Shown in pieces: positions 27,597 to 51,125 of a stretch of DNA of 64,000 nucleotides. The notes below the pieces were generated by a model that had not been told where the DNA came from, did not search any database, and saw nothing but the letters and a program-made list of their open reading frames with translations. Every line of letters begins with the position of its first letter. Within the stretch, counting starts at the first letter, position 1. The DNA is from Patescibacteria group bacterium (lineage in GTDB: Bacteria > Patescibacteriota > UBA1384 > GWA2-35-9 > JBASTP01), in NCBI GenBank assembly GCA_049274945.1, contig JBASTP010000006.1, positions 96,529 through 160,528 on the forward strand. The letters run 5' to 3'. A program made the position numbers and the translations under genes.

Positions 27597-27605
27597 TGCA
27601 CCCCC

Positions 27606-30613: not shown

Positions 30614-30617
30614 GGCG

Positions 30618-31346: not shown

Positions 31347-31353
31347 GGTTATT

Positions 31354-31833: not shown

Positions 31834-31863
31834 TTGACTATTGAACCTAATTGTTTGTATTAT
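31834..31863 (+). promoter_or_regulatory. putative sigma70-type promoter of metK (possibly leaderless)
   Basis: TTGACT (31834-31839), an 18-nt spacer, then TATTAT (31858-31863). The metK ATG at 31871 lies only 7 nt downstream of the -10 element, and there is no SD. Confidence 0.3.
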
Positions 31864-31870
31864 ATCACCT

Positions 31871-33220: not shown

Positions 33221-35887
33221 TCAAACCATCGTCCCGGTCACGGTGAACGACATGCCCGGTTTGAGTTCTTGGCGCAAAATCTTTTCGGCAACGAGGTTTT
33301 CCACTTTGTCGGTAAGCGCGCGTTCCAGCGCCCGCGCGCCGTACACCGGGTCAAAACCCAGCTGCACCAACTTTTGCTTGGCCGCTTGGTCAAGCGTAAT
33401 TGTGATTTGTTCTTTAGCGAGTCCTTCGTTCAATCGGGAAACCATAATATCCAGCACTTTTGCCATTTCGGCATGACTCAGCGGCCGGTAAACCACCGCC
33501 GCATCAAAGCGGTTCAAGAACTCCGGGCGGAACGTGCCTTGCCGCTGGATGTCATCAATCAGCTGTTTGGCAAATGTTTCCACTTGCTCACCGGCGTTGA
33601 TCCGCTCGCGGATTTGCTCTGAGCCGGCGTTAGAGGTGGCAATAATAATCGTATTGGTAAAATCAACGGTTTTGCCGGAGTCATCGGTCAGCCGGCCTTC
33701 GTCGAGCAGCTGCAAAAATAGGTTAAGGATATTCTCGTTGGCCTTGTCGATTTCATCAAAAAGAATCAGCGAAAAGGGTTTTTCGGCCACCGCGCGGGTG
33801 AGCAGCCCGCCACCCGGGTGCGACGGCCCGCCGATCAGCCGCTCGGCGCCAAAGGGCGTGTCATATTCCGACATGTCAAACCGAACGATTTCCTTTTCGC
33901 CGCCAAAGTAGGCGTTGGCCAGGGCTTTGGCGGTAGCGGTTTTACCCACGCCGGTTGGCCCCAAAAATAGGAAGGCGCCGATTGGTCGCGGCCGGGTTTT
34001 CACGCCGGTTCTGGCGCGGCGCAGCGCATCGGCAATTTGGCTAACCGCATAGTCTTGGTTGATCAAACTTTTGTGTAGCACGGTCTCAAGATTTAGCAGC
34101 AGTTCCCGTTCATCTCCGCCTACCGGCCCCACTGCCACATGGGTTTTACTCTCAACGATTTTGTCGAGATCTGCCGGCCGGAGGATCTTCTCGGCTGATC
34201 GTTCAGCGGTGTAAACCGCTGCTTCATCAAGCAGATCAATCGCCTTTTCCGGTAGTTTTTTCTCCGGCAGGAAGCGGTGGGAAAGCGCGAGCACTTCTTT
34301 CAAACTGGCGTAGCTTATTACAATCCGATAGCGGGCTTCGAACGCAGCGGCCACTTCCTCAAGAATATTCATCATCTCGTCGTCGCTCGGCTGTGTAACC
34401 TCGATTTTTTCAAAACTCGCCGCAATATCCGGGTGGCGGCTCAACACTTTGTGCCAGCCGTTTGGCGTGGTGGTGGCAATCAGCTTGAGGGCAGGGGAGT
34501 CGAGGTAGGGCTGAAGAATCGAGCCGGCATCAACTCGACCAATGGAAAGCTCCTCGCCAAAGAGCAGCCGATCAAATTCATCAATGAACAAAATTACATT
34601 TCCCGCCCGCACCGTTTCGTTGAAGATTTTTACCATTACCTGCTCAAGGGCGCCTACTGAACTAGCCCGCCCGAGCAGCCGGTTAGTATCGAGTTCAATA
34701 ATTCGTTTGTAAACGAGGGTCGAGAACGAGCTGCTTGCGAAGATTTTTTCCGTGATCCCCTCCACCACGGTGCGCTTGCCGGTGCCCGGCTCGCCCACCA
34801 GTACGGCGTTGTGGTGGCTGCGGCGCGCGAGGATGCGCTCAAGCCTCTCAATTGAGTTGCGATGAGCCACAAAGTGGTGGCTCGGGGCGCGGCCTTCGAG
34901 CCGGCTCGTCCAATCAATCGAAAACGCATCGAGCGTGGGGGTCCAGCCCGCTGCCCAATCGCGGCCCACCCCACCGGTTGCCCTCAATTTTTTAGGGTCA
35001 AAGAGCGCCGAAGGTTCATTCATTCGCCCCCATAACTCCGCCTGCCAGCGGCAGACTGCCTCGACATCTTGGAGCGTGAGCTTTTTTTCGGGCAGTTTAT
35101 TAGTTAGATCTTTTGTGTTCGCAATAAGTGTAAAGACCAAATCAGCTACCTCGACTCGCTCTCGGTGGTGGTTCAGAGCGGTTTGAGCTGATTTGATAAT
35201 AAAGGCGCGTTCGTCAAGTGCATTGGGATCCGCAGCGGTTACCTCATTTACCCCAAAATCCAAATGCTGAAATATGAATCGCGCTTGCTCATTTTTCAAA
35301 AGATTACCTACCAACTCGTTAAGATCTTTTGACTCCTTAACGATCCGCCGCGCAGCCAAGGTAAAATAAGGTCCGAATTTGAAGTCAGTTTGTTTGATAG
35401 CGCGGTCGAGCGGTTCGGGCTTCGGCGGGTTCGCCAGTAAGTCGTGGCGGTACCACCACAGCAGACCGCCTATGGTAGCTGCCACGGCCGCTACCAAACC
35501 CACCCCCCAGGTGCTTGCCCCAATAGTCATAAAGAAAAATCCAGCCACAAAAGCCACCGGTGCGAGTACCGGGAGTATCCAACTTGCGAGCACTATAAGC
35601 CCAAGGGCTAGCGCCACCGCAACCGTTACGATTAATCCCACTATCACGGTGGCTGCCCTCACCACAAAGCCGAAGCCGCGCGAGGCTAAATTGAGCGCAA
35701 CGGCTTGCAGCAGGAGCGAGATTTCTTGGCGCACCGGCGCCACCACATCGCGTTTCCAGGGTGCAAACAAGGTTTTTAGAAGCAGCTCAATCGAAAACAG
35801 GTCGTAGGTAATGAATAACAAACTCGCCGCCACATTTCTGAGTGTCTTAAATGCAACGCGGTAGTACCAGTGGAAAATGTTTTTCAT
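33221..35887 (-). CDS. membrane-anchored double-AAA+ Clp/Hsp100-like ATPase
   Basis: ~150-aa N-terminal region with 3-4 TM helices, then D1 Walker A LVGEPGTGKRTVV and D2 Walker A FLFLGPTGVGKTATAKALA, a sensor-2 region and a ClpB_D2-small-like C-terminus. No clear ClpP-docking IGF/LGF loop. Confidence 0.6.
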   Translation of the reverse strand: MKNIFHWYYRVAFKTLRNVAASLLFITYDLFSIELLLKTLFAPWKRDVVAPVRQEISLLLQAVALNLASRGFGFVVRAATVIVGLIVTVAVALALGLIVLASWILPVLAPVAFVAGFFFMTIGASTWGVGLVAAVAATIGGLLWWYRHDLLANPPKPEPLDRAIKQTDFKFGPYFTLAARRIVKESKDLNELVGNLLKNEQARFIFQHLDFGVNEVTAADPNALDERAFIIKSAQTALNHHRERVEVADLVFTLIANTKDLTNKLPEKKLTLQDVEAVCRWQAELWGRMNEPSALFDPKKLRATGGVGRDWAAGWTPTLDAFSIDWTSRLEGRAPSHHFVAHRNSIERLERILARRSHHNAVLVGEPGTGKRTVVEGITEKIFASSSFSTLVYKRIIELDTNRLLGRASSVGALEQVMVKIFNETVRAGNVILFIDEFDRLLFGEELSIGRVDAGSILQPYLDSPALKLIATTTPNGWHKVLSRHPDIAASFEKIEVTQPSDDEMMNILEEVAAAFEARYRIVISYASLKEVLALSHRFLPEKKLPEKAIDLLDEAAVYTAERSAEKILRPADLDKIVESKTHVAVGPVGGDERELLLNLETVLHKSLINQDYAVSQIADALRRARTGVKTRPRPIGAFLFLGPTGVGKTATAKALANAYFGGEKEIVRFDMSEYDTPFGAERLIGGPSHPGGGLLTRAVAEKPFSLILFDEIDKANENILNLFLQLLDEGRLTDDSGKTVDFTNTIIIATSNAGSEQIRERINAGEQVETFAKQLIDDIQRQGTFRPEFLNRFDAAVVYRPLSHAEMAKVLDIMVSRLNEGLAKEQITITLDQAAKQKLVQLGFDPVYGARALERALTDKVENLVAEKILRQELKPGMSFTVTGTMV

Positions 35888-37375: not shown

Positions 37376-37519
37376 TTATTTTAGGAGATCTACGGTTGCT
37401 CTCCCATCGCTGTGTTTAAAGAAAATATGGGATCCCCGCTGCCGAATTTTCTGAAAGCCTAACCTTTCTAATATTCTAATAATTTGGCGTGCTTTAAGAG
37501 AACCAAGGCGCTTAGCCAT
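37376..37519 (-). CDS. hicA: HicA-family toxin, short form (47 aa), not in the ORF track
   Basis: Hand translation gives MAKRLGSLKARQIIRILERLGFQKIRQRGSHIFFKHSDGRATVDLLK*. It carries the HicA dsRBD-like core with the GSH motif. The start lies 2 nt after the hicB stop. It is shorter than typical HicA (~60 aa) and may be truncated. Confidence 0.45.
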   Translation of the reverse strand: MAKRLGSLKARQIIRILERLGFQKIRQRGSHIFFKHSDGRATVDLLK

Positions 37520-37772
37520 TGTTCAGTGAAACAACTTCCATACCAACAAACGAGGGTTCGTAGGAAAACTGTGAAATTTTCTCTTGGTACTCGGGGTCAT
37601 CGCTCTCAACATCAAGACATAGTTTGATTGCTTCTTTGATTCGTTTATTAAGTTCAGCCAAAGTTTTTGCTTGAGTGTAACAACCCGGTAACGATGGAAC
37701 CGTTGCAACAAAAAATCCGTCTTCGTCTCGTTCAATCAAGACTTTAAATTGGCGTGGTTGTAGTCTCGGCAT
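37512..37772 (-). CDS. hicB: HicB-family antitoxin
   Basis: 86 aa. FKVLIERDEDGFFVATVPSLPGCYTQAKTLAELNKRIKEAIKLCLD matches the HicB/UPF0150 RNase-H-like fold pattern. Confidence 0.5.
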   Translation of the reverse strand: MPRLQPRQFKVLIERDEDGFFVATVPSLPGCYTQAKTLAELNKRIKEAIKLCLDVESDDPEYQEKISQFSYEPSFVGMEVVSLNNG

Positions 37773-37831
37773 AGTGCGATGATTATATCATTGTTTCCAA
37801 TTTCCGCAATAATCAAGTTACCCACCGATAC

Positions 37832-38221
37832 TTATTCGATTCTTTTACTGTGCTTTTTGAGCCACTGGGCGATTTTGTCTTCGGGGAGCGAGTTATTTTC
37901 AATTTCTAGGGCGAGTCCATATAAGTGATTTTTTGATTGGATTAATTGGTAGCCGTTTTCTTCTAGAAACATACCTATTGATGCGATTGCAGTGCGTTTA
38001 TTGCCATCAACAAACGGGTGATTTTTAAGGAGCGAATGTCCTAACACGGCTGCCTTCATAAAAAGATCGGGGTAGGCTTCGAAGTCTCCAAAACCAGCTC
38101 GCGGTCGCGCAACAGCAGAATCCACGAGTCCGTAATCTCGGACACCCTGCGAACCGCCATACCTAATAACGAGCTCCTCGTGGATCTCGAGTACCGTTTC
38201 CGTGGCGAGATAACGGGTCAT
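37832..38221 (-). CDS. doc: Doc (death-on-curing) toxin, Fic-fold
   Basis: The Doc-specific motif HPFVDGNKRTA is present. 129 aa. Confidence 0.8.
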   Translation of the reverse strand: MTRYLATETVLEIHEELVIRYGGSQGVRDYGLVDSAVARPRAGFGDFEAYPDLFMKAAVLGHSLLKNHPFVDGNKRTAIASIGMFLEENGYQLIQSKNHLYGLALEIENNSLPEDKIAQWLKKHSKRIE

Positions 38222-38442
38222 TAGTTCTTGGCTAATTTTTTGAGGTCAGCGTCATTCCGATCCATGAATTTTTTCAAACGCCGTTTGAAGGCGGGAGTTG
38301 GCAACACGGTATTTGATACAGAGATTACAACTGATGGCTTACCGTGTTTTAACACTTGGTATTGTTCGCCCGAATAGGTAACCTTGTCGCTGATCTCGCT
38401 CCAACGTTTGCGGACCTCTGTTGAAGAAATTGTTTTAGTCAT
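38221..38442 (-). CDS. phd: Phd/YefM-type antitoxin partner of Doc
   Basis: 73-aa ORF overlapping the doc start by 1 nt. N-terminal pattern ISSTEVRKRWSEISDKV...VLKHGKPSVVISV is typical of Phd/YefM. Confidence 0.55.
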   Translation of the reverse strand: MTKTISSTEVRKRWSEISDKVTYSGEQYQVLKHGKPSVVISVSNTVLPTPAFKRRLKKFMDRNDADLKKLAKN

Positions 38443-38584
38443 TATGTATTAATTATACAATATGTACAAAACTATGTCAAGGGCCACTTGTGGTCAGGGG
38501 ATTTCCTTGACTTATTGGCTTTTGTTTGGTTTAATAACTGGTTCGCACTATGTTCCTGCACAACCTAGTCCAAGGAGGACGTCC

Positions 38585-39238
38585 ATGACCGAGGCTCTGC
38601 TTAACTCAATCGTCAATGTTGGTATCGCATTGGTCGCTGTTACGATTATGTCTGCGTTCATAATTTGTTTCGTATTGGTGACATCTGCCAGGACAATCGC
38701 CAAGTCAATTGTCCAGGGCCGCAACCTCCGTGTTGCGTTTGCGCTGGACGATGTTACGCGCGCCGCCACACTCGAAGCGCTCAAGCAAGATCCCCTATTC
38801 CTCGAAGCGATCGCGAACTACTTGGGTGATCATATCAAAGGCGAAAAAGGCGATCCCGGCAACGCAGTTGATCCGTGCGAGGAAGTGATGAGGATCTTCG
38901 ATAACCCGGAGGCAACTGCAACACTGATCAATGGTTTGGCAACCCGCGCCGGCTACCAGGTGGCTCAAGAGAGCCGTCAATTACTCGCTGAATTAAATAA
39001 CAACGTTACTCAACAATTGGCGGTGCCCGTCGGAGAGCTTGCTCATCTGCGTGATGAGTTACGGAGTTATGTCGCCGATCTGGAGACAATAAATCAACTA
39101 CTCGCAGCTGCCCAGAATATTGTGGAAGGCGCCCAGCATGACACTGCGGATCTCAGAGCCACCGCCGCTCAGCTCGAGCAACTGATTGCAACGTCCAATT
39201 TACTCAAACGTCTCCTCGTTGATCCACAACCCGCTTAA
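38585..39238 (+). CDS. hypothetical membrane protein with coiled-coil C-terminus
   Basis: The ATG at 38585 is preceded by a perfect AAGGAGG. The track start at 38462 has no RBS. One TM helix, then a helical region with a heptad-like Leu/Ala/Glu pattern. Confidence 0.45.
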   Translation: MTEALLNSIVNVGIALVAVTIMSAFIICFVLVTSARTIAKSIVQGRNLRVAFALDDVTRAATLEALKQDPLFLEAIANYLGDHIKGEKGDPGNAVDPCEEVMRIFDNPEATATLINGLATRAGYQVAQESRQLLAELNNNVTQQLAVPVGELAHLRDELRSYVADLETINQLLAAAQNIVEGAQHDTADLRATAAQLEQLIATSNLLKRLLVDPQPA

Positions 39239-39366: not shown

Positions 39367-40554
39367 TTATGTTCTGCCCTGCGAGCGGCAGCGCGGGAGG
39401 TTGGCAAGATAGATGCCGCATTCCGCGCCGATGCAACCATGCTGTCCAGAAAATCCCGGGCAGCACTGAGGGAATCGCTTGGGCTCCAGGGCCAAGGTAA
39501 CCGCTACCCGCATAATTTTGAGGTAGTAGTCCTTGTCCCAGTCGGGTTTGGCCCCGATATTGCGGTCGTTGCCGCCGACCGTAATTTCAGCCCCCCGGGC
39601 GTGGAAGTACACTTCCTCGCATCCCGCAATCGTACCGGGCGCGAGGAGCTCGTCGTCGGAATAACGGTAGCCTCTCGGCCGGGCAATGTCACTGCGCAGA
39701 ATCCGCAGCACATCGTCCAGCATGCCGAGGGTATTCACGCCCTCAAGCCGCCGGTTGGGCCGTACCGCGATTTCGCCGTGGCTCGTGATCTGGCAAATAA
39801 TCGCGAGGCCCAACTTTTGTGCCAGGTCGCGCGCCCAGAGGCTATCGTGTTCAATGATGCAGCCGCGCTCGCCAGACTTGGCCACAATCGTTCCCGCCTC
39901 GATCGCTGCCTTGAGGCCCGGCTCCTGCATCTGCTGCGCCCAATAGAGCCAGTCATCGAAGAGCGGCCTGGCAAGGACGAGCGCTTCCTGCACTGCCTGT
40001 AGCCGGTATTCCGGGTTGCTCCGCCACAAGGGATTGTCGCGCAGCCGTTTGAACCGGCGGTTGATGGTGGCAAAAATATCGCCACCGCCGCGGGTGTCCC
40101 AGTGGGCAGCTTGATCAGCCACGGCTCGGACCACCGGATCGCTCTCGTATTTTCGGGTTACGATAGCGACGTTTTTGATCGCGCACTCGTCCGGGTAATC
40201 CTCGGGTGGGTGGTGGTCAAACGGCCGTTGGTCGGTGCGACCGGCGCAATCAAAGGCCACTGCCTGGCGGCTGTCGAGCAGCTTGCCGTATTTTTGCTCA
40301 AGCAACGCCCGATCCGGCTCGACGATGATCGGCGCCTCGGCCAGGCCGGGAAATACTTTGCCATCCGGGTCGCAGTGGAGTGCCATCAGGATGGCAAAGA
40401 TGCCATCGGCATCCGCGTCGATGATCACCGCTTGAAGTTTCTTCCATTGTTGGCCCTTCCAGTCAGAGACGCATAAACTTTCTGTTGTCAACGTTCTCAC
40501 CTCCTTGGGGTGTTGTTGTGTGGAACCGTGCCGGTTTAGCCGGTTTGGTGCCAA
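39367..40554 (-). CDS. hypothetical protein with DHH-phosphoesterase-like motifs
   Basis: VIIDADADGIFAILMAL (DxDxDG, RecJ/NrnA motif I-like), FDHHPPED (DHH), and TRGGGD (a GGGH-like motif). An alternative reading is a nucleoside-hydrolase-like DxDxxxDD motif. Family unresolved. Confidence 0.3.
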   Translation of the reverse strand: MAPNRLNRHGSTQQHPKEVRTLTTESLCVSDWKGQQWKKLQAVIIDADADGIFAILMALHCDPDGKVFPGLAEAPIIVEPDRALLEQKYGKLLDSRQAVAFDCAGRTDQRPFDHHPPEDYPDECAIKNVAIVTRKYESDPVVRAVADQAAHWDTRGGGDIFATINRRFKRLRDNPLWRSNPEYRLQAVQEALVLARPLFDDWLYWAQQMQEPGLKAAIEAGTIVAKSGERGCIIEHDSLWARDLAQKLGLAIICQITSHGEIAVRPNRRLEGVNTLGMLDDVLRILRSDIARPRGYRYSDDELLAPGTIAGCEEVYFHARGAEITVGGNDRNIGAKPDWDKDYYLKIMRVAVTLALEPKRFPQCCPGFSGQHGCIGAECGIYLANLPRCRSQGRT

Positions 40555-40663
40555 GAAAAGGCGGCCCCGACCTTCCTCCGAAAAGCTCGGATTGGGTCGG
40601 GACCGCGTCTCGCTAATTCAGTTGATCTTAATAAACTGTTCTAGCGAGGGTATGACTGGGTCT

Positions 40664-41881
40664 TTACAGCTCTACGTTGCCCGCCGCGGGGGCTGTACTC
40701 ACCTCGGCGGTTTTTGCCTTGATCAGCTCCTTTGCTGCATCAATCGTTGCTTGCGCTCGTGCTTGGTTCTTGAGAACCTTCACGAGCTCGTTGACGTTGG
40801 CCGCAGCCAGGTAGGCTGCGTTGAGGTAACCGGCCTTGTTGAGCCGGTCGGCAAATTCGCCGCGCCGCTGGCCATCCCGTTCGGGGAAGTGCTTTTTGGC
40901 GACTGCCGCGAGCACCTCCATAACCGAAATGTCGCTGCCGGGCTTGCTGGGTGTTGTCTTTCCGGAGCCCTTTCCTTTTCCGCCTCGCGTTGTGCGTTTG
41001 GCCTTGCGAGCCGCTTGCTCAACGATCTCGGCGAAAATGGTAGGCGTGAAAAATACCACCCGGTCGTCGCGTTTCTCCGGGCCGTATTTGGAAACCGAAT
41101 AGGCGTATGCCTTTCGGTAGGCCTGGATCAGGGAGTAGCGGCGCTCACTGGCATCGGTACTCATCAGCGATGCCTCGGCAGTGTTGATATCACCGCGAGC
41201 AATGAGCGCCCTGAGGACTTCAGCACTGCCTTCTTTGGTGGCGTTAAGCATCATGCTGTAAGCCCGTCTCACCTCCTGTGGTCTGGGCGGTTGGTTAGGA
41301 TCCGATTCGATGAATCCCAGGACCACAAACACGCCTCGTTCCTCGCCGTTGATCAGGATTGTCAAGGGATTGTCTTCGTCGGTCTCACCCTCGAGCAATG
41401 TGATCTGGCCTTCGTCAATCTGATTCGCGGAAACGAACCAAACGAGGTGGGCCGACGGCCGGTACCAGTACTTACCGTTAGTCGGTTCCATCTTACGGTT
41501 GACGTGGAGTAGCGGGCCGCCGTTGAAGTGGCACTTCTGGGCAAACCCAATAGTCTCATCACGCTCGGACGGTTTGATGTTGCCCTTCTCCACGAGTTCC
41601 TCGTGGAAGTAGCGCCCTGCGAGCGATCCGCCGTCGGTCAGAAACTCGGAGTCGATGTGGCAGCACCACACCGTTCCCCTCCGGTTTTTGTGCGCCCGGT
41701 AGCGTATGGGAGTGCCAATCGGCGGCACATCGCACGCTCTCGGAATGAGGGGTAAGCCATCCACCTTCTCAGTGGAGAAGCGACGGTAGGGGAATTCGAT
41801 GATTCCCGACCGCTGGCGCCTCGAACCGTCCTTGAAGACGGCGGTCCCTTCTAACTCAAATGTAATCTTCGGGCCGGCCAT
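40664..41881 (-). CDS. hypothetical protein (last gene of the Hsp70-like operon)
   Basis: 405 aa, basic, with a KGKGSGKTTPSKPGS linker. No recognisable catalytic motif. 1-nt gap to the upstream gene. Confidence 0.4.
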   Translation of the reverse strand: MAGPKITFELEGTAVFKDGSRRQRSGIIEFPYRRFSTEKVDGLPLIPRACDVPPIGTPIRYRAHKNRRGTVWCCHIDSEFLTDGGSLAGRYFHEELVEKGNIKPSERDETIGFAQKCHFNGGPLLHVNRKMEPTNGKYWYRPSAHLVWFVSANQIDEGQITLLEGETDEDNPLTILINGEERGVFVVLGFIESDPNQPPRPQEVRRAYSMMLNATKEGSAEVLRALIARGDINTAEASLMSTDASERRYSLIQAYRKAYAYSVSKYGPEKRDDRVVFFTPTIFAEIVEQAARKAKRTTRGGKGKGSGKTTPSKPGSDISVMEVLAAVAKKHFPERDGQRRGEFADRLNKAGYLNAAYLAAANVNELVKVLKNQARAQATIDAAKELIKAKTAEVSTAPAAGNVEL

Positions 41882-41882
41882 G

Positions 41883-42473
41883 TTAGGCTCCTTTCTTTGG
41901 TTTCAGGCGGCCTTGGTTGATCTCGCCCTGCGTGTTATTGACAACCTGGCGCTGCGCCAAGCCCTGCCACGTGTGGGCGAGTTCGGCGATCTTCGTCCGT
42001 TGCGGTTTACTCTTCACCTCGGTGAGCGAGCCATACCCCAGCGTTTCGAGGATCCAGGTAATTTCTTGCGCAGATTGTGTCGATGATGTGGAGTTGCCGC
42101 GCATAACTTCCTCCACATCAGTGATCCGTCGCTCAAGGTTATGTACCGTTGCCTGGAGCTGAGCGACTGTTGCCGAGGTGCCTCCGTCGAGATTGTTTTG
42201 GGTACCCAATCTTTCAGGAACACTACGCACAAACAATCTGATCATGGTTTCCGGGTTGCTCGTCAGGCCATCAGCGATGTCCTTACCGAGTTCTCCGTCA
42301 CGATCCAGCTCGCTGGCAAGCCACTCTGCCGCGGTCCGGTACTGCTCCCCGAGTCCAGTCACAAACCCTTGGACAAACCAGTCGTGGTTGCCAGGCGTAT
42401 GTTGCCAAGCTGCCAGTCGCTTGTTGCCGTTGGGGCCGATCTTGGTCAGGATCTCCCGGACCATGTGTTTCAT
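41883..42473 (-). CDS. hypothetical protein (third gene of the Hsp70-like operon)
   Basis: 196 aa. ATGA overlap with the stop of the Hsp70-like gene. Confidence 0.4.
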   Translation of the reverse strand: MKHMVREILTKIGPNGNKRLAAWQHTPGNHDWFVQGFVTGLGEQYRTAAEWLASELDRDGELGKDIADGLTSNPETMIRLFVRSVPERLGTQNNLDGGTSATVAQLQATVHNLERRITDVEEVMRGNSTSSTQSAQEITWILETLGYGSLTEVKSKPQRTKIAELAHTWQGLAQRQVVNNTQGEINQGRLKPKKGA

Positions 42474-44218
42474 TCGTCATCTCCTCTCGGTTGTCGCTTT
42501 TTCTCGCCGTACCTGCGTGCCTTATTCTTGGGCGGGCGCTCTCGTCTTGCCGGTCGCTCACTGGCTTGCTTGGGTCGCAAACTTGCTTCAAGCGTGGTGA
42601 GCTGCGTACTCACTTCCCCCATCTTGAAGGTACTCCCGGCTATAGCGGGCTCGTGTCTCCTGTTGGGACGGTTGGAATATTCGAACACATACTCGTCAAC
42701 CGCCTGAGCCACATGCGCCAGGTCAATGTCCGAAGGGGTCTCCACTCGTTTGCAGTGGTCGGTATCGCGCTGGCCATCAGCCATCGCGACATACAGGTTG
42801 ACTTCGCCGTTTCCCGTGACTTCGGCGCGCAGTTTGCCCCGTCTGACCCCGACGCTCTTGAAGCTGACCGTAGCGATCCGCTTCTCGACGCTTCGGGTGT
42901 CCGAGGCCGACTGCACCAGGCGAACCGTGGCTTTGTCTTCCTTGGTTGCGAAGGGCAGCTCGATCGATCCTCCCAACGGATCATTGCGATCGAACAGCGT
43001 TCTCCGGAGCTCGTTTCCCTGGCTATCGTGATGCACCAGAGAAATTCTTGCCCCGACCACGTCCTGCACAACCTGGGTGTCTTTGCCTTCGGCCAGATCG
43101 GCGGCGTAGCGAGCTGCTCCGAGCGCCACGCACTCGTCCGGGTTGATCTTGTCGTACACCACCGGACTACCGAAGAGCTTTCGCACCATCGCGCGCAGCG
43201 CAGGCATCCTGGTTGGACCGCCTACGAGCACGACATGGTGGATACTCTCCGGGACAAACTGGTGGTCAGAGTCGTTCAGCGCGGCGAGCGTTTGTTCCTT
43301 CACTCGCTCGAGCAGGTGGTTCGTCAGGTCCTCGAATTGCGCCCGAGTCACCTGGGGATCAATCGCACTGGTGAGATCGACGAAATCGTTGCCAATCACA
43401 ACCTGGGCGTCTAACACCGCGGTGTTTTTGGCTGAAAGTTGGATCTTCGTCCATTCAGCGGCCGCCTTGAGGCTTGCCACTGCCTGGGGGTTGATCCAAT
43501 TTCCTTGCTCATCGGTTGCAAAGCAGTCCTGTTCGAACTGCTCGCTGTACTCCGCCGCTTTGGCGCGCGCCAACACGAGGTCCCAATCGTCGCCACCGAG
43601 TTTTTCGACCCCGCGCGTTGTGATCACGCGAAAGCCAAATGCCCGGCTGTATTCAACGATCGAAACATCGAAGGTGCCGCCGCCAATGTCCAGAACCAGG
43701 AAGATTTCCCCGTCTTTGACATCCTTGTTGCGATGGATGCCGTACGCCACCGCGGCTGCGGTGGGCTCTTTGAGCCAGCCGAGTACGTCGATCCGCGCTG
43801 CCTCGGCTGCCAAACGCATTCGCTGCAATTGCAGTTCCGGCGCGTTGGCAGGCACGGTCATTACCGCGCGCAGCTTGTCGCCGCCACTCAAGGGTGCAAC
43901 GAGCTTGCCCAGAAAGATCGCGGTCAGGTCCACCAAGTTCATGGTTTTCCCGAACACGTCTACTATCTGGAGCTCTTCTTCGCCCAGCCGGCGCTTCCAA
44001 CTCGTGAAACTCACGGCCCGCGAGTCGCGGCTCAGTTCCTCAGCTCGCCCGCCGATAATTGCTTCCTCGGTGCCGTTCTGAGACAGGAAAGTCAGGACGC
44101 TGCGCATAAGCGGTCCGTCCGGTGCTTTGTACAACCAGGGGCGCACTACCCCCTTCGGGTCAACTGCGCCTACCACCGAATTGGTGGTGCCGAAGTCGAT
44201 CCCTGCGACGTTTTCCAT
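42470..44218 (-). CDS. non-canonical Hsp70/DnaK-like ATPase
   Basis: The ATG at 44218 (MENVAGIDFGTTNS) has a GAGGTGA RBS. The track GTG at 44230 lies inside that SD. Phosphate-1 DFGTTNS, phosphate-2 LDIGGGTFDVSIV, adenosine motif VVLVGGPTRMPAL. Truncated, divergent substrate-binding region and a basic C-terminal tail (RPARRERPPKNKARRYGEKKRQPR). Confidence 0.7.
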   Translation of the reverse strand: MENVAGIDFGTTNSVVGAVDPKGVVRPWLYKAPDGPLMRSVLTFLSQNGTEEAIIGGRAEELSRDSRAVSFTSWKRRLGEEELQIVDVFGKTMNLVDLTAIFLGKLVAPLSGGDKLRAVMTVPANAPELQLQRMRLAAEAARIDVLGWLKEPTAAAVAYGIHRNKDVKDGEIFLVLDIGGGTFDVSIVEYSRAFGFRVITTRGVEKLGGDDWDLVLARAKAAEYSEQFEQDCFATDEQGNWINPQAVASLKAAAEWTKIQLSAKNTAVLDAQVVIGNDFVDLTSAIDPQVTRAQFEDLTNHLLERVKEQTLAALNDSDHQFVPESIHHVVLVGGPTRMPALRAMVRKLFGSPVVYDKINPDECVALGAARYAADLAEGKDTQVVQDVVGARISLVHHDSQGNELRRTLFDRNDPLGGSIELPFATKEDKATVRLVQSASDTRSVEKRIATVSFKSVGVRRGKLRAEVTGNGEVNLYVAMADGQRDTDHCKRVETPSDIDLAHVAQAVDEYVFEYSNRPNRRHEPAIAGSTFKMGEVSTQLTTLEASLRPKQASERPARRERPPKNKARRYGEKKRQPRGDDE

Positions 44219-44237
44219 CACTGTGATCACCTCTTTT

Positions 44238-44795
44238 TCAGTCCATTGGACCTTGATTCCTTGCCGCCGAAGAGCTTGCGCCCGCCGGTGCAGGGGTAGG
44301 ACGTACGGCTACGGCTTTCCCTTGCGCGATTTCCTGGAGGAGTTGATTTTTCAACCGCTTCCGAAACTCGGGGCGGCTGAAGTCTCCTCGCAGGTGCGCG
44401 CTCAGCATGCCGCCAGCTCGGTGTCGAAGTAATCTATCCGCTTCGGCATCAAGCGCGGCAACGGTCTGTTTGGGGAGCCGCTCTATCTCTGCGGTGACGA
44501 TGTCCCAAAACGGAAGATGTTCATCTTCGCCTTCCTGGGATTCACCACGACCACTCAGCTGCCCCTCGAGCTCGGTAATGCGCGCGCGGGCCTGGGCCAA
44601 CTCATCGGCCAAGTTCCCGTTTGCGCCGCCTGCCTCGAGCTCCTTCCGCAGGGCGTTCACTTGGTCTCGTAATTTAAACAACTCTTCAAGCACGAGTTTG
44701 CCAATGACGCCTTGCTGAAACTCCCGTCGGTACTCAGGGTCTGTTTCCAAACGTCTGAGTGCCGCTTCTACAATTGTCTCTGGTGTTTCTGCCAA
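44238..44795 (-). CDS. hypothetical coiled-coil protein (first gene of the Hsp70-like operon)
   Basis: 185 aa with long predicted coiled-coil segments (…LRDQVNALRKELEAGG…LAQARARITELEGQL…). 19-nt gap to the Hsp70-like start. Confidence 0.4.
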   Translation of the reverse strand: MAETPETIVEAALRRLETDPEYRREFQQGVIGKLVLEELFKLRDQVNALRKELEAGGANGNLADELAQARARITELEGQLSGRGESQEGEDEHLPFWDIVTAEIERLPKQTVAALDAEADRLLRHRAGGMLSAHLRGDFSRPEFRKRLKNQLLQEIAQGKAVAVRPTPAPAGASSSAARNQGPMD

Positions 44796-45051
44796 TTATT
44801 CCACCTCCTTCCTTTTCAGTTTTTATCGCCATTTTTGGTTCCCCGCTGGCGACCCACGGTGTATTTTTTCAAGAACATTGCAGAGTTGCTGCAACCTGGA
44901 ATTATACCAGAAAAACCTTGATTTGTCAAGGAGTGCACGCTGCGGTGCACTCCGCAGACCCCGCGAAGCACGCACTGTGCGGAGAGGGGTCAAGGTTACG
45001 TTGACTTTCTTGACTAGCTGCCCTAACGTAGAATCAAAGCAAGGAGGCACA

Positions 45052-45396
45052 ATGGCACAAACCGCAACTATCGACTGGTCTACCGCAACTGACGATCAAA
45101 TCACCGACGCGGATTTGATCGTGGCGCTCAACCTGGAGCGGCTCTCGGATGAAGAAAAAGCCGGATTTTTGGCGAAAATGGCGGAAACCGTGCAAAAAGC
45201 GGTAATCGCCCGGGCAATCGCCACCATGGACGAGGCCAAGCGCAAGGAGCTGGACGAGGTGATGGCCAAAAACGATCCCGAGGCCCTAGCCACGTTTATC
45301 ACCGATGCGGTCCCGACCTTCGACGATCTGACGCGCCAGGAAACGCTCACGTTCAAGCGCGCCATGCTCACCGGCAAAATGCCAGCCTCCGCATAA
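45052..45396 (+). CDS. hypothetical protein
   Basis: The ATG at 45052 has AAGGAGG 5 nt upstream (MAQTATIDWSTATDD...). The track start at 44878 has no RBS. Confidence 0.45.
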   Translation: MAQTATIDWSTATDDQITDADLIVALNLERLSDEEKAGFLAKMAETVQKAVIARAIATMDEAKRKELDEVMAKNDPEALATFITDAVPTFDDLTRQETLTFKRAMLTGKMPASA

Positions 45397-45557: not shown

Positions 45558-45824
45558 ATGTCAAAATCAACGGCCATGACAACTCGGTTGGGAGCCAATG
45601 GCAGGGTGGTGTTACCGGCAGGTATACGCCGGAAACTCAACCTAAAACCAGGTTCCTCCTTTAAGGTAGTTATTAAAGATCGAGATATTGTGTTAAAAGA
45701 TCCCCTCAAGGCTTGGCGAGATATTCAGGAATTTTTTAAGCCGTATCGCCCTAAACCTGGTGAAAAACTTGTTTCCGAGCAGCTTATTGAAGAACGACGG
45801 CAAGCCGCGCTCCGTGGAGACTGA
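45558..45824 (+). CDS. vapB: VapB antitoxin, AbrB/MazE/SpoVT swapped-hairpin fold
   Basis: TRLGANGRVVLPAGIRRKLNLKPGSSFKVVIK is an AbrB-like DNA-binding pattern. The stop overlaps the vapC start (ATGA). Confidence 0.65.
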   Translation: MSKSTAMTTRLGANGRVVLPAGIRRKLNLKPGSSFKVVIKDRDIVLKDPLKAWRDIQEFFKPYRPKPGEKLVSEQLIEERRQAALRGD

Positions 45825-46198
45825 TGATTATTGATTCCTCCGCGCTTTTAGCGTATATCCTTGGCGAGCCAGGATCAGATCGCGTTGAATCCTTGCTCGA
45901 GACAAGTCTTTTTATATCAACCGTCAACTACGTTGAATCGATTTTACGATTGAAACGCCAGGGGGCATCGTTTACGAGCGCTGTTAAAAAAATTGAAACA
46001 TCAAATTTGAGAGTTATTGATTTCACACAATTATTTGCTCGGCAAGCCGCGGCCATTGATGTTTCGGGCAATATGGTTTTATCGTTGGGCGATAGAGCAT
46101 GTTTGGGAACGGCAATAGGTTTAGGGTTGCCCGTCGTGACTGCCGATCGGGCGTGGGCAAAGCTTAATTTGCCAATAAAAGTGATGGCTATTCGTTAG
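45824..46198 (+). CDS. vapC: VapC PIN-domain toxin
   Basis: MIIDSSALLAYILGE places the first conserved PIN Asp at position 4. Acidic residues D/E occur at PIN spacing. 124 aa. Confidence 0.65.
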   Translation: MIIDSSALLAYILGEPGSDRVESLLETSLFISTVNYVESILRLKRQGASFTSAVKKIETSNLRVIDFTQLFARQAAAIDVSGNMVLSLGDRACLGTAIGLGLPVVTADRAWAKLNLPIKVMAIR

Positions 46199-46738: not shown

Positions 46739-48136
46739 ATGTTAACGGAGGATGGGGCGCCGGGACCGTTCGATGTAGATCCCGCCGAAGCGGAAAACAA
46801 AGAGCAGCTCTTAGGCGAGTTAAAAACTCGGCTTTCGGAATTACGCAAGTATTCCGATAATCCCAATCTACTAATGCCAAGTCAGCCCATGCCAAGCGAA
46901 TTGGAGGAGTATACGGTTAACTTCGAGGTACCAGAGGACGATCGTTTTCCGGGTCAGTATACGCTTAAAAGATTGAGCCCAAGTGGCTATAGCACAGGTT
47001 CCATTGGGGTGCCAAAAGAATTGCTTGGCCGCCATGATGATTCGATTGAGGGTGATATTAGTCTCCAGTTCGGAAACGATGGCACTTTCGAAAGAGTTTT
47101 CTATATGGTTAGGTATAAGAATCAGCACGGAAAAGACCAAAGGGGCCTACAGACCGTTTTACCCGGTGAGCGCGAGGGAGATTACAAAAAAATTAAACAA
47201 GCCGATCTTCCGGCGCTCCGAGAGCGGTTCGAACACCTTGTTCAACGGGGGATTAAACCCGAGGAAGTCTCTAGGATAGGACTTAAAGAAGAGACGGGAA
47301 GTATATCCAAGTTTTTATCGTTTCCTAATGGTAACGAGTTTGACGATATTGTTGGTGGCCAACAATATCGAGTTCATCTAGAGAATACTAGGCACCCTGG
47401 TACGGTAATGAAGCATATAGGTGGCAATCGTTGGGAGGAAGTCGGTAAGATTGAACTGCCCGCACCCGCTGAATCAATCCAGCATGAACCCGATCGAATG
47501 CTTACTACCGAAGAACTCAATGCGCTCCTCGCAATGATAGGGACTGAACTTGGGGCACCGCCGATCGATGCAGAAGTCATTGCTCAAACCGCTGTTCCTG
47601 ACCCCACTGCCGAGCCAGAAAAACCAACCCCCGAGACCCCTACCCCCGAGCGCCTGAGCGAGGAAAAACTCGCTCAACTCAAAGAAGCGCTGCCACTGCT
47701 GCTTGAGCTTGGGTTACGGCACGACTGGGATGAGGGCTACGAAGGGTTAGCGAAAGACGAACGGCTGGCAAAACTGCTCGATGCCGAAACACTGGCAGAT
47801 ATTCGCACTGATTGGGCAAGTGCAAAGCTTTCCACCGAAAAAATCGAGGTCAGGAGCACTTCATGGCCATCTGGAGCGGTGGAGGGTCGAGTTGGTGAGG
47901 TTCTTTTTTACCTCGATCGACTCGGTTTCCGAACGGCTAGTGATTATGATAAATTACGATCTGCCCCTCCAGAACCACTGGGCGGGAGTCCCGAGGATTT
48001 TGACGAAATGTACGAGGAAATTAAGCAGCGAGTTGGTGACGAGTTGGAGGAACGGGTGCAAGCACGACAGCAACGGATCGAGGTGCTAAAGCAAAAACTG
48101 GGCAACCCTGAACACACGGGAGGTGGCAATGGCTGA
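46739..48136 (+). CDS. hypothetical acidic protein
   Basis: 465 aa. No motifs recognised. Pro/Glu/Thr-rich linker (PDPTAEPEKPTPETPTPE). Overlaps the next gene by 14 nt. Confidence 0.45.
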   Translation: MLTEDGAPGPFDVDPAEAENKEQLLGELKTRLSELRKYSDNPNLLMPSQPMPSELEEYTVNFEVPEDDRFPGQYTLKRLSPSGYSTGSIGVPKELLGRHDDSIEGDISLQFGNDGTFERVFYMVRYKNQHGKDQRGLQTVLPGEREGDYKKIKQADLPALRERFEHLVQRGIKPEEVSRIGLKEETGSISKFLSFPNGNEFDDIVGGQQYRVHLENTRHPGTVMKHIGGNRWEEVGKIELPAPAESIQHEPDRMLTTEELNALLAMIGTELGAPPIDAEVIAQTAVPDPTAEPEKPTPETPTPERLSEEKLAQLKEALPLLLELGLRHDWDEGYEGLAKDERLAKLLDAETLADIRTDWASAKLSTEKIEVRSTSWPSGAVEGRVGEVLFYLDRLGFRTASDYDKLRSAPPEPLGGSPEDFDEMYEEIKQRVGDELEERVQARQQRIEVLKQKLGNPEHTGGGNG

Positions 48137-51125
48137 TATAGAATTTGGTGGTCTTGATCAGGCAGTTACCGAACGAGAAAGACGAGAACAGGATGAAATG
48201 GAACTCCAGCGACTGCAGTACCAACAAGAACACGATCTCGCTATTGCCCGCCGCCGATTCAGCCGTGAGATTGATTTGAGTGAGGCTAAGGCACCAACGC
48301 CGGAAACCTCAGAAATTCCAGTAACTCCCCCGGCGCCCGAGGCCCCTGCTCGTCCCGAGCCCGCCAAAAAAACCGCCGAAAAGCTCCGACAAACCTTCGA
48401 AAGAGCATCAGCTAAACTGCTGCCCAGAACCGGCCAACGCCGCGTAGAACAGGTTAATGCCCTGCTCGCGCTCGCCAAGCGGCTTGGGATACGGCTCGGC
48501 CTCGCCGACATTTCGGAAAGGATTGCTTTTTTACGCGGTAAAGGGGAGATGCCCGCCCGCACCAAAGAACGATTGACCAAAGCACAAGAAGCCAAGCAAG
48601 CGGAGCGCGAAGAGGAGGCTCACGCAGAGGAACCGGAGCCTCTCACCACCGAAGAAGCCCGCGACGAATCATTCGGCCGGCTCGATTCCATGCGTGCTTA
48701 TGTTGAAAATCTCGCCGAGCGCAAACCGGAAAACCTGCAACGAGCGGATAGACTCTACGATTTGCTGCTCAAAACCAGGAACACCAAGTTCGACAAGTGG
48801 AAGGAAATTGCCGGTGTCGGCTTGTCGCTTGCCACACTCGCTACGCTGCCGGTTGGTGGTTCGGCCTCTTCGTTGGTAAAAGTAGGCCGCATGGCATTCG
48901 GTTCGCTCAACTACTCTACCATCGGGTTCCGCATGGGTTCTGAGTTGGGCTTGCGCGATGAAATAAACTGGAGACAAGAACGCTACGAGCAAATGATGAA
49001 AATGTCTCCAGATGATGAACATTATCTTGATTCTCTGCGAGCCGTTATTAATGATCAGGTCGCGCTGTACCGCGCCGGGGTGCGGTTTGACCGCTATGAA
49101 TCAGGCCAGAAAGGGCTAGCGATGTTCGGCAAAGCCGGTGAAGTGTTCCAAAAACTCAAACAAGGCAAAATTTTTGAATCCGGCAAAACGCTTTGGAATG
49201 CCGTAATCGAGGATAGGAAGGAACTCCTAAAACTTGGTGGGAAGATGGCGTTCTACAGCACGCCGCTTATTGCCGCGGCGCTCGCGCCAGGTTTGGCGCT
49301 ACCACTCTATGCTGGTACCACAGGCGCAAACATGGTGGAGCGCATTATGCGTTACCGTCAGTCAAGCGCCAAAGAGCAGTTTGAGAAAAATCGCAAAGAA
49401 CCCGATCCGCTCCTCAAACGAATTTTGGATCTCGCCGATCGGTATGACCAGGGATTCACGGCTAAGACTGCGACACTAGAGGGTATCGGTCCTGAGGAGC
49501 TCAGAGAAGCAATGCTCAATGCCCAGTCGCTCCTCAGTGAACGTAACGACGAACGCTACCTTGAACTCCAGCGATATCGTGGCGCTCAAGGTCTCAAGGC
49601 GGGCGCCATTCTTGGCCTCATTTCCGCCAGTTTCTATGGCATCATGAGCCTGCGCGGCCCAGCCGAGGCCGCTCGCCCGGGAGGAGCCGCTGGCGCTGGC
49701 GCAGCGGCAGGTGCTGCTGGTGGGGCAACCGAGCACGCCCACGGTGCCGGAAAATCAACTACACACCTCGAGCCTTCAAAATCTGGCGGCGCAGCCGCAC
49801 CGCTCCAAGAACGCTCTGGTACGCCACCAGATGCTCCTTCCGCGGGCGACGCTACACCTCCGCCCGATGCAGAATCTCAAGATGGAGGCACTGGAGAAAA
49901 AGCCGCTGATGCAGCCATACCAGGACAGTCTGAAACCAAGGCCCCCTCCACTGAAACCCCAGGTGGCAAAGCCACCATTGATATTCAAGAAAAACCCTGG
50001 CCAACCGATAAAGTGGAACAAGCCCGCCGGATCACCCAAATACTCGGCACCCGCCTGCGCGAAGCCGTGCCCGAAGACTTCAAGGGATTGGAAGACCTTA
50101 AATCTAATGAATCGCTTACCCGTTCCATTACCTGGGAGCACAATGGTGAGAAGTTTCTGGTCGGCGGCATTACCGACAAAAATGAGTTTTTTATAGACGG
50201 CCAGCGGTTCAAAATTTTTGATGACCACTACATTGAAGTACCGGTTGATCTTGATCCCAACGGCAAGATCGACGGCAACGATTTGATAAACGGCAAAGTG
50301 GCAACGATGAAGATTGATCTCAACACCGGCCGCTCGGTCGATGGCAAGTTCGCTGCGTGGGATAAGGATGTGTTCTTTCGGCGTGAGGGTGCAACTGGCA
50401 GCCACGAGGACATCCGCTTGGTCGCCTCGGATCGCGCGCGGCTGGATCAATATGGCGTTTCGATTGGCCGCGATAGGAGTGGCCAATTCCACATCACCCA
50501 CGAATCACTTGCCGGCCAGCCGGGGCTTAACGTTGAAAGTTTTAAGGCCTACCTGGGCACCGAGGCGGTGCCACTCAATAAGATAAATCAACCGCTCATT
50601 GATTACCGTTGGGAACTCGACCATTTTGTGTACCATAAGGATTCCGCCAACGGTTGGCTCGATCTTGCCCACCAACGGTCGGTGCTCGATTACAGCAATT
50701 TTGAAGGCAACGAGTATCAGGGCAAGGAACTTGAGCAGCGCCTGGCCGCCGAATTGGAAAAATCTGCCGGCAGTTCGGCCGATACTAGGGCGGCGCTCGA
50801 GCGAGGGGATAAAACGGTTATCGAGCAAGCCTACGATCGGGTAAAAACCACGGTGCAAACCAATTTGCCCGAGGCGCTCAAGACCAGCCACCGCAGCGAC
50901 TTTCTGGGTTGGCTTAAAGAGGGCGCTGGCAAGCTTAGCTCTGAGGCGCAGCGGTCAACGCGCGAAGCGCTTGAACGAGTTGCCAGTCAAAAGGTGGCAT
51001 TCCGGATTGATAAAAATTTCGATAGCACATATTGGCTTAAGATCGAGGGTGGCCAAAAGCCAATCCAGCTCGATCCCATTCCAGGATTCAAAGCATTCTT
51101 AGAACGGTTCAAAATAGGCGGATAA
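48123..51125 (+). CDS. hypothetical large protein (1000 aa) with a central Gly/Ala/Pro-rich linker
   Basis: Charged coiled-coil N-terminus. Two hydrophobic segments (~aa 370-400 and 490-510). Low-complexity linker (GGAAGAGAAAGAAGGATEH...PPDAPSAGDATPPPD). A ~380-aa C-terminal domain. Confidence 0.45.
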   Translation: MAMADIEFGGLDQAVTERERREQDEMELQRLQYQQEHDLAIARRRFSREIDLSEAKAPTPETSEIPVTPPAPEAPARPEPAKKTAEKLRQTFERASAKLLPRTGQRRVEQVNALLALAKRLGIRLGLADISERIAFLRGKGEMPARTKERLTKAQEAKQAEREEEAHAEEPEPLTTEEARDESFGRLDSMRAYVENLAERKPENLQRADRLYDLLLKTRNTKFDKWKEIAGVGLSLATLATLPVGGSASSLVKVGRMAFGSLNYSTIGFRMGSELGLRDEINWRQERYEQMMKMSPDDEHYLDSLRAVINDQVALYRAGVRFDRYESGQKGLAMFGKAGEVFQKLKQGKIFESGKTLWNAVIEDRKELLKLGGKMAFYSTPLIAAALAPGLALPLYAGTTGANMVERIMRYRQSSAKEQFEKNRKEPDPLLKRILDLADRYDQGFTAKTATLEGIGPEELREAMLNAQSLLSERNDERYLELQRYRGAQGLKAGAILGLISASFYGIMSLRGPAEAARPGGAAGAGAAAGAAGGATEHAHGAGKSTTHLEPSKSGGAAAPLQERSGTPPDAPSAGDATPPPDAESQDGGTGEKAADAAIPGQSETKAPSTETPGGKATIDIQEKPWPTDKVEQARRITQILGTRLREAVPEDFKGLEDLKSNESLTRSITWEHNGEKFLVGGITDKNEFFIDGQRFKIFDDHYIEVPVDLDPNGKIDGNDLINGKVATMKIDLNTGRSVDGKFAAWDKDVFFRREGATGSHEDIRLVASDRARLDQYGVSIGRDRSGQFHITHESLAGQPGLNVESFKAYLGTEAVPLNKINQPLIDYRWELDHFVYHKDSANGWLDLAHQRSVLDYSNFEGNEYQGKELEQRLAAELEKSAGSSADTRAALERGDKTVIEQAYDRVKTTVQTNLPEALKTSHRSDFLGWLKEGAGKLSSEAQRSTREALERVASQKVAFRIDKNFDSTYWLKIEGGQKPIQLDPIPGFKAFLERFKIGG

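Follow-up and report, generated by a model that had tools for sequence, protein, structure and literature searches.

A lineage-restricted, predicted lidless Hsp70 paralogue and three orphan proteins in an exchangeable chromosomal cassette of Patescibacteria: a possible conflict module

Organization of the operon

In the present study, we analyzed a four-gene operon, g1 to g4, and the gene that follows it, g5, all of which are located on the minus strand of a 64,000-nucleotide stretch of a metagenome-assembled Patescibacteria genome (contig JBASTP010000006.1, positions 96,529 to 160,528); this whole stretch is referred to below as the window and is numbered from its first nucleotide. The parent contig spans 214 kb, and the genes in question (WAP74_02725-02745) are annotated by NCBI as "Hsp70 family protein" and "hypothetical protein". 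A previous inspection of the same DNA without database searches (hereafter, the sequence-only reading) had described four minus-strand open reading frames (ORFs) with their sizes and with overlaps or short gaps between them, and these coordinates and junctions were confirmed. In the ORF list, g1 (44238-44795) encodes 185 aa from a TTG start codon preceded by the ribosome-binding site (RBS) GGAAGGAGGTG; g2 (42470-44218) encodes an Hsp70-family ATPase of 582 aa from an ATG; g3 (41883-42473) encodes an orphan protein of 196 aa; and g4 (40664-41881) encodes a basic orphan protein of 405 aa. A gap of 19 nt separates g1 from g2 and a gap of 1 nt separates g3 from g4, while g2 and g3 overlap by 4 nt (ATGA), g3 being coupled translationally to g2 through this overlap and also to g4. 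Since the ratio of nonsynonymous to synonymous substitution rates (dN/dS), calculated with orthologues in two relatives, was 0.15-0.47 across the operon genes, g1 to g4 are all regarded as real genes under selection.

An operon promoter of the sigma-70 type is present upstream of g1 (44901-44929, minus strand), in which TTGACA and TATAAT are separated by 17 nt and accompanied by an extended TG (12/12 matches). The 5' untranslated region (5'UTR) and the RBS downstream of this promoter are kept in relatives, and the region 44802-45384 shows 82-88% nucleotide identity in L007 and L002 (loci used for comparison are denoted by L numbers). The end of g4 is followed by a hairpin that resembles an intrinsic terminator (40553-40606, minus strand), with a 12-bp GC-rich stem and then CUUUUCUU; the 201-nt spacer 3' of g4 folds far better than shuffled sequences (z = -6.5), and a U-run occupies the terminator position in all five loci that cover this site. 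The GC content of the operon is 0.57-0.60, as opposed to 0.46-0.52 in the immediate flanks.

The Hsp70 protein

The g2 protein matched the Pfam HSP70 family with an E value of 5.2e-57, and the motifs DFGTTNS, DIGGGTFD, and LVGGPTRMP were all found. The catalytic residues of the nucleotide-binding domain (NBD), namely, D8, K75, E151, D177, and T182 in the numbering of g2, are intact, and D8, K75, E151, D177, G179-T182, G208-D211, and G333-G334 are invariant in comparison with the aligned DnaK proteins; the same positions are also kept in the proteins of cassette type B, which is described below, except for T182 and details of GGPTRMP. The features that define the Hsp70 superfamily (an actin-fold NBD, the catalytic D/K/E/D set, and glycine-rich phosphate loops) are thus all present in g2. 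The beta part of the substrate-binding domain (SBD-beta) is divergent yet alignable, whereas the SBD-alpha lid is absent: the alignment with seven DnaKs stops after SBD-beta, and approximately 60 aa are found instead, with a tail that is basic and then acidic (residues 545-582, isoelectric point [pI] 11.2).

None of the DnaK equivalog cut-offs of NCBIfam, which span 648-1019 bits, was reached by g2 (PRK00290, 196.5 bits against 648; TIGR02350, 188.8 against 822.55), nor was that of HscA (TIGR01991, 195.5 against 708.55), and the scanned neighbour genes included neither IscU nor HscB. Only two close relatives of g2 were found among 5.8 billion proteins (92% and 67% identity), the next matches being ordinary DnaKs at approximately 32% identity, and a match to the PHROG Hsp70 family (3e-55) was no better than the match to DnaK. 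At the positions aligned with R167 and N170 of Escherichia coli DnaK, which we take to be J-domain contacts, g2 has G and K. Judging from these sequence features, g2 is a lineage-restricted Hsp70 paralogue that is predicted to be ATPase-competent and lidless, while the basic tails of g2 and g4 suggest contact with nucleic acids. The sequence-only reading had depicted an Hsp70 with intact nucleotide-binding motifs, a basic tail, and a degenerate SBD that is distinct from the housekeeping DnaK, and this picture was borne out in each respect, the degeneration consisting of a divergent SBD-beta and a missing lid, and the distinction from DnaK of the low score, the lack of the lid, and the private partners.

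The partner proteins

The g1 protein is acidic and helical, with coiled-coil character; its C-terminal tail, (S)PTPAPAG(A/V)SSS, is invariant, and its body is variable, with 31% identity between cassette types A and B. The g3 protein is helical with a central heptad segment, and its type A and type B versions were related by hhalign with an E value of 5.5e-4 over the N-terminal 63 aa. The g4 protein (pI 9.2) is composed of a variable, beta-rich N-domain and a helical middle part (aa 1 to approximately 310), a basic linker (pI 12), and a constant helical C-domain (aa approximately 317-405; pI 9.1). An exhaustive HMMER scan of 1.84 billion representatives yielded only five g4 homologues; the sequences P0126 and P0127 from the exhaustive search were discarded as repeat-protein false positives.

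No match to g1, g3, or g4 was obtained in Pfam, NCBIfam, PHROGs, or PADLOC, in agreement with the earlier statement that the partners carry no recognisable motifs, and profile searches of these three proteins and of g5 against the sequences of the PDB gave nothing meaningful; matches to Lassa nucleoprotein and keratin (both with the g1 coiled coil), CENP-S, and histone H2B were dismissed as chance or compositional. Signal peptides and transmembrane (TM) segments were not found in the partners by sequence inspection. There was no significant match to a DNA-binding domain, and a SAM/HhH-like resemblance of the g4 C-domain was weak and not significant. The absence of GrpE and J-domain proteins among the partners, which had also been proposed in the sequence-only reading, was supported by several searches: the partners did not match the GrpE domain (PF01025) even at E values up to 10, they did not match the J-domain (PF00226), and the HPD tripeptide does not occur in g1, g3, or g4. 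With the proteins of a genuine hrcA-grpE-dnaK-dnaJ-clpB operon (L012) as references, hhalign assigned a probability of 0.1% to the g1 and g3 profiles against GrpE and of 0.3% or less to all comparisons of g1, g3, and g4 with GrpE and DnaJ.

Residues 182-210 of g4 (RGVFVVLGFIESDPNQPPRPQEVRRAYSM) contain LGF and PP, which are invariant in 6/6 g4 homologues. The segment VLGF...PP.PQEVRRAY was considered as the start of a J-domain, being the best g4-DnaJ alignment of hhalign, and was rejected with a probability of 0.3% and no HPD following it; residues 182-210 may nevertheless include a degenerate J-like element. The sequence GKGSGKT in the g4 linker was also rejected as a Walker A motif, since it departs from the pattern GxxxxGK[ST] and lacks conservation in P0002.

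Exchange of the cassette between lineages

The DNA of the window and that of L007 align at approximately 82% identity up to the start of g1 (44802), and this identity resumes at 40950 within g4. The segment between these breakpoints (40950-44802, minus strand), which comprises the g1 coding sequence, g2, g3, and g4 codons 1 to approximately 310, cannot be aligned with L007 and is the swappable cassette. The only alignable island within it (44253-44321, minus strand) lies in the 3' end of g1 and encodes the invariant tail PTPAPAGASSS; a 25-nt run inside this island (CCCCTGCACCGGCGGGCG..AGCTCTTC) is identical in four loci, including its synonymous sites, whereas the remainder of g1 is unalignable at the nucleotide level between cassette types. 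This run could be due to a constraint at the nucleotide level or could be a recombination junction.

The contrast between the cassette and its surroundings is also apparent in the proteins. Between the window and L007, amino acid identity is 94% for the DUF5663 protein encoded on the left flank, 84% for g5, 81% for an M24 peptidase, and 67% for Doc, and it falls to 31% for g1 and to 29-31% over approximately 230 aa by BLAST (21% in the full alignment) for the Hsp70, with no BLAST match for g3 and with similarity restricted to the last 95 or so residues of g4. The 3' part of g3 and the 5' part of g4 in L007 are 90% identical at the nucleotide level to those of L005, the g5 proteins of which are only 40% identical to each other, and the similarity between L007 and L005 stops at the same point in g4. 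L007 is therefore considered to be a recombinant that carries an L005-like donor cassette in a window-like background. Both cassette types share the gene order, a lidless Hsp70 with a basic/acidic tail, and weak homology of the partners. The type A and type B Hsp70s score 62-81 bits against each other, which places them farther apart than either is from DnaK (100-190 bits).

These comparisons show that a modular cassette of at least two deeply divergent types begins at the first codon of g1, extends to approximately codon 310 of g4, and has been exchanged by recombination in constant junctions. What stays constant is the promoter with its 5'UTR and RBS, the g1 tail PTPAPAGASSS, the C-terminal domain of g4, the terminator with the structured leader behind it, and g5. 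Wholesale exchange at a fixed site is the usual behaviour of immune or other conflict genes, and the exchange of this cassette with sharp breakpoints provides independent support for a conflict-type role, although it does not prove defence.

The predicted phosphoesterase g5 and its leader hairpin

The constant neighbour of the cassette, g5 (39367-40491, minus strand; 374 aa, TTG start, RBS AAGGAGGTG), encodes a predicted phosphoesterase of the DHH superfamily, and in all relatives with contigs that reach this position, a g5 homologue likewise lies after the g4 homologue. Identity to g5 of the window is 40-43% in L004 and L005. The protein contains IIDADADG, AFD, DHH, and WDTRGGG, the residues of which were assigned to DHH motifs I-IV (DxD, D, DHH, D) by inspection, and D25/D27/D29, D81, D92-H93-H94, and D132 are invariant in six homologues; because of this invariance, the predicted enzyme is probably active. 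An AlphaFold2 (AF2) model calculated from five sequences, with a predicted local distance difference test (pLDDT) score of 80.3, has the two-domain arrangement of a DHH and a DHHA1-like fold, and its best Foldseek matches were an uncharacterised Helicobacter pylori protein (6mtz) and yeast exopolyphosphatase. Sequence identity to these structural matches is 15% or less, and no Pfam DHH or DHHA1 match was obtained. At the C terminus (39367-39480, minus strand), most family members carry a four-cysteine (Cys4) motif, CPG(F/Y)SGxxGCxxxxC...LPRC, which is absent in L004 and is modelled with low confidence; a zinc knuckle and a redox site are both conceivable.

Between the U-run of the terminator and the RBS of g5 lies a leader hairpin of 31 nt (40522-40552, minus strand), consisting of two helices and an invariant CUAAA loop and followed by ACACA. 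Its consensus, GGAACC-AA-NCNNN-CUAAA-NNNGN-A-NGGUUCC, was derived from five loci (the window, L007 9619-9649, L005 1518-1548, L004 1438-1468, and L008 54-84), in which 4/10 pairs show compensatory changes and 98% of cells are paired; 0/500 shuffles reached its covariation score. The hairpin did not match Rfam and occurs as a single copy in the window. It may act as a cis-regulatory or protein-binding RNA. The g5 family, the Cys4 tail of g5, and the covarying leader hairpin are each novel in their own right and open to experimental tests.

Chromosomal context

The locus is located approximately 30 kb from dnaA/dnaN/recF, near oriC, in a synteny common to relatives, and the window also contains yidC, metK, a ClpB-like gene, and secretion or pilus genes. 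The gene order of the 13-kb contig of L007 (large membrane proteins, a TM protein, DUF5663, g1-g5, a convergent gene for a TM coiled-coil protein, phd-doc, and the M24 peptidase) matches that of the window. On the left, the divergent DUF5663 gene (45052-45396, plus strand) forms a constant flank, with 94-96% amino acid identity in relatives; a DUF5663 scan of contig collections returned two short fragments of an L002-like strain only, and an exact look-up of the protein returned the same contig only. On the other side, the convergent gene (38462-39238, plus strand; start probably near 38585) encodes a single-pass membrane protein with a long coiled coil and a collagen-like KGEKGDPG motif (KGxxGDPG), which is syntenic in L005, L007, and L008 and highly variable.

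Toxin-antitoxin (TA) modules were confirmed by Pfam on both sides of the operon, as the sequence-only reading had stated: hicA/hicB (37376-37772) and phd-doc, together at 37376-38442 on the minus strand, and vapB (AbrB/MazE-type) with vapC (PIN) at 45558-46198 on the plus strand (HicB_lk, 1e-9; Phd, 1.9e-7; Fic/Doc, 1.3e-18; MazE/AbrB, 7e-10; PIN, 2e-14). The hicA gene is a HicA-like ORF of 47 aa and may be truncated. However, vapBC is a strain-specific insertion that is missing in L002, L007, and even the 91%-identical L003, and hicAB is missing in L007 and L008, both of which keep phd-doc. Therefore, vapBC and hicAB are scattered recent insertions into the intergenic spacers of a stable locus, and the argument from a defence island, on which the sequence-only reading had relied, is weak because these modules are strain-specific and the synteny around them is conserved and chromosomal. 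No integrase, repeats, or tRNA were found at the borders.

Other features of the window were recorded in passing. Two large orphan proteins of 465 and 1000 aa (46739-51125, plus strand) are syntenic in relatives and 34-48% identical, and the longer one contains membrane segments and a Gly/Ala/Pro-rich region; both are candidate fast-evolving envelope proteins. In a ClpB-like double-AAA+ protein of 888 aa (33221-35887, minus strand), the N-terminal 150 or so residues, which replace Clp_N, resemble several transmembrane helices; a disaggregase-like ATPase with such a membrane anchor is an unusual neighbour at approximately 3.5 kb from the Hsp70 locus. A low-GC island at 12000-15000 (0.36-0.40, compared with approximately 0.53 in the window) adjoins dnaA, contains a DUF6190 gene, a DHDPS-family gene, an aminotransferase, and a SAM (S-adenosylmethionine) methyltransferase, and was probably acquired horizontally. 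Secretion and pilus genes comprise three T4SS-pilin paralogues at 3677-6207 (plus strand), one of which is fused to Ig-like/CarboxypepD_reg domains, a PilB/T2SSE ATPase at 17921-19441, and a type IV secretion-like cluster at 20713-31920 (minus strand) with a VirB4/TraG-type ATPase, membrane proteins, and a 1904-aa protein. The genes at 26-32 kb, which were examined as a paralogous cassette in view of their similar sizes, belong to this VirB4/TraG-type secretion cluster.

A possible conflict module and its alternatives

We favour, with a probability of approximately 0.35, the reading that the operon belongs to a conflict system, to which it would contribute a variable recognition module driven by the Hsp70, the output of the system being constant. 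According to this proposal, the Hsp70 would act on its private partners as a clamp or switch powered by ATP and not as a general foldase, and the variable parts (the g1 body, the Hsp70 SBD, g3, and the g4 N-domain) would form the recognition module. The diversity of this module may be maintained by diversifying or frequency-dependent selection in response to a variable target, the most plausible one being a component of a phage or another mobile element. The constant g1 tail and g4 C-domain would link the module to machinery that is itself constant. For the output or reset activity, the likeliest candidate would be the adjacent DHH enzyme g5, as a nuclease or a phosphodiesterase of a nucleotide signal, and its expression may depend on transcription that reads through the terminator and leader. 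A more specific version, which we advance with greater reserve and consider somewhat unlikely, is that the locus represents a previously undescribed immune or conflict module, in which the lidless Hsp70 and three co-evolving orphans constitute an exchangeable recognition unit that plugs into the g1 tail, the g4 C-domain, the RNA leader, and the DHH phosphoesterase and is swapped at fixed junctions. The sequence-only reading had named the operon as a candidate for an undescribed defence or stress system; its non-housekeeping Hsp70 with private partners stands, whereas its basis in a defence island does not, and a PADLOC search of the region matched no known defence-system model.

Several observations weigh against a role in conflict. 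The search of PADLOC-DB v2 gave no model match, the only similarity being to PDC-M61B over 39 residues of the Hsp70 (E 0.0079, 12.9 bits). Relatives were not found in phage or viral collections: tblastn searches against phages gave no match for g5 and, for g2, generic DnaK similarity only, and scans of viral contigs, contigs of GTDB-representative genomes, and JGI metagenomes with g4 and g5 yielded nothing. The locus has a stable chromosomal synteny and is not a mobile island, and the neighbouring vapBC and hicAB are recent, so they carry little weight as guilt by association. A terminator separates g4 from g5 and the g5 alleles do not co-vary with cassette type, because of which functional coupling to g5 is drawn from adjacency only. 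An AF2 model of g4 from two sequences reached a pLDDT of 33 and was unusable. The membrane-protein neighbour co-varies with cassette type, a fact that fits an envelope role equally well. Lastly, all statistics are thin, as the known loci number only approximately eight and every one of them is metagenomic and belongs to a single rare lineage.

The main rival, which we regard as rather unlikely, is a private chaperone or assembly system for the fast-evolving envelope or host-attachment proteins of an episymbiont lineage, which would fold, insert, or assemble neighbouring membrane proteins, the cassette diversifying together with them. Candidate clients would be the convergent TM coiled-coil protein and the 465-aa and 1000-aa membrane proteins. 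Indeed, the membrane proteins around the cassette diverge rapidly and keep their synteny in relatives, and similarity of the TM coiled-coil protein follows cassette type (A-A 58%, B-B 61%, A-B 36-41%) and not g5 type, despite the constant g5 in between; DnaK paralogues specialised for membrane-protein clients are also known (PMC11019930). However, this co-variation is based on four loci, the partners have neither signal peptides nor TM segments, and neither the divergence of the Hsp70 itself (approximately 21-30% identity between alleles) nor the basic tails are explained. The same basic regions, namely, the g4 linker, the g4 C-domain, and the Hsp70 tail, together with the weak SAM/HhH-like resemblance, would be accommodated by a module for nucleic acid uptake, salvage, or repair, with g4 and the Hsp70 tail as the parts that bind DNA or RNA, the Hsp70 as the ATP-driven remodeller, and the DHH enzyme as a RecJ- or NrnA-like exonuclease. 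We consider this doubtful, as deeply divergent exchanged alleles are not expected of a housekeeping nucleic acid pathway and significant DNA-binding domain matches were lacking.

Even more improbable is the remnant of a mobile element, such as a replication or partition unit of a plasmid or phage with its own Hsp70, the mosaicism of which would be ordinary recombination of mobile elements. The mosaic block structure, the raised GC content relative to the flanks, and the existence of a PHROG Hsp70 family are consistent with such an origin; on the other hand, the PHROG match does not exceed that to DnaK, the borders are free of the integrase, repeats, or tRNA looked for, all relatives share conserved, chromosomal flanks, and searches for phage, plasmid-like, or viral relatives gave nothing more than generic DnaK similarity. 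The order of the four genes and the sizes of 185, 582, 196, and 405 aa recall the real hrcA-grpE-dnaK-dnaJ operon of L012, and there is no canonical dnaK within the 64-kb window; a highly divergent housekeeping grpE-dnaK-(x)-dnaJ operon is nonetheless very unlikely because g1, g3, and g4 match GrpE or DnaJ with negligible hhalign probabilities and have no HPD, and g2 has no lid and scores far below the DnaK cut-off. The Hsp70s of strains with flanks that are 84-94% identical are themselves only approximately 21-30% identical, which is incompatible with an essential conserved chaperone. We give the least credence, close to none, to membership of a described Hsp70 conflict system, such as CoCoNuT CnuD/McrB-Hsp70, DO-GTPase-tubulin-HSP70, or GAP1-N2. 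Although Hsp70-like NBD/SBD units have been recruited to predicted defence systems (PMC11090510; PMC7159879), no McrB GTPase, DUF2357, HEAT, TRAFAC GTPase, tubulin, GrpE, or DnaJ-FNIII partner was found here, and the ATPase motifs of g2 are intact, whereas those of CnuD have been described as degenerate (PMC11090510).

The genomes of Patescibacteria are very small and streamlined. Additional DnaK paralogues are reported to be uncommon and to be associated with large proteomes (PMC11019930). That a private Hsp70 and three orphans are maintained in the form of interchangeable alleles of deep divergence implies selection that is both strong and unusual. If the locus is an immune or host-interaction module, an Hsp70-type ATPase would join the small set of nucleotide triphosphatase switches that drive prokaryotic conflict systems. 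The operon would also offer a compact system for Hsp70 function without a lid, J-domain, or GrpE, in which the sharp boundaries between constant and variable parts represent natural domain-swap experiments.

Comparison with known systems

In common with the DnaK-GrpE-DnaJ system, the present locus has an Hsp70 NBD with the catalytic D/K/E/D residues, a recognisable SBD-beta, and an operon of small partner genes with a similar order and sizes. It differs from DnaK in the low identity of g2 (approximately 32%) and its scores below the equivalog cut-offs, in the basic-then-acidic tail that replaces the SBD-alpha lid, in partners that are not GrpE or J-domain proteins, and in the poor conservation of g2 between close relatives, whose flanks are 81-94% identical in amino acids. 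HscA-HscB/IscU, HscC-DjlC, and MxDnaK2 are similar in principle, each being an Hsp70 paralogue for narrow clients with private partner genes; in contrast to the HscA system, g2 scores 195 against 708, Fe-S genes are not present nearby, and the partners have no J-domains. To our knowledge, no other Hsp70 paralogue system is exchanged as allelic cassettes.

A further parallel is provided by CoCoNuT CnuD/McrB-Hsp70 and DO-GTPase-tubulin-HSP70, in which Hsp70-like NBD/SBD units likewise operate outside general proteostasis in rapidly diversifying multi-gene loci, and for which RNA or nucleic acid binding has been proposed. The partner families are wholly different. CoCoNuT CnuD is defined by a McrB-like NxD GTPase, McrC DUF2357, HEAT repeats, and HEPN in the operon (PMC11090510), none of which was matched by Pfam or NCBIfam in g1-g5 or their neighbours; DO-GTPase-tubulin-HSP70 and GAP1-N2 are defined by TRAFAC GTPase(s) with tubulin, or with GrpE and a DnaJ-FNIII protein (PMC7159879), and scans with the same two databases detected none of these. 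The g5 protein shares the two-domain fold and DHH motifs I-IV with NrnA, GdpP/Pde2, the TM1595 phosphodiesterase, RecJ, and CRISPR-associated NrN, and is distinguished from known DHH/DHHA1 phosphoesterases by its low identity and its additional C-terminal Cys4 motif.

The swapping of divergent modules at conserved flanking or intragenic sequences, with constant domains kept, is also a feature of defence hotspots, of hsdS shuffling in Type I restriction-modification systems, and of polymorphic toxin loci. The present locus departs from these in its content, an Hsp70 and three orphans, and in having no recombinase, repeats, or silent cassettes seen in the window. In its population behaviour, the locus resembles these variable-cassette conflict loci.

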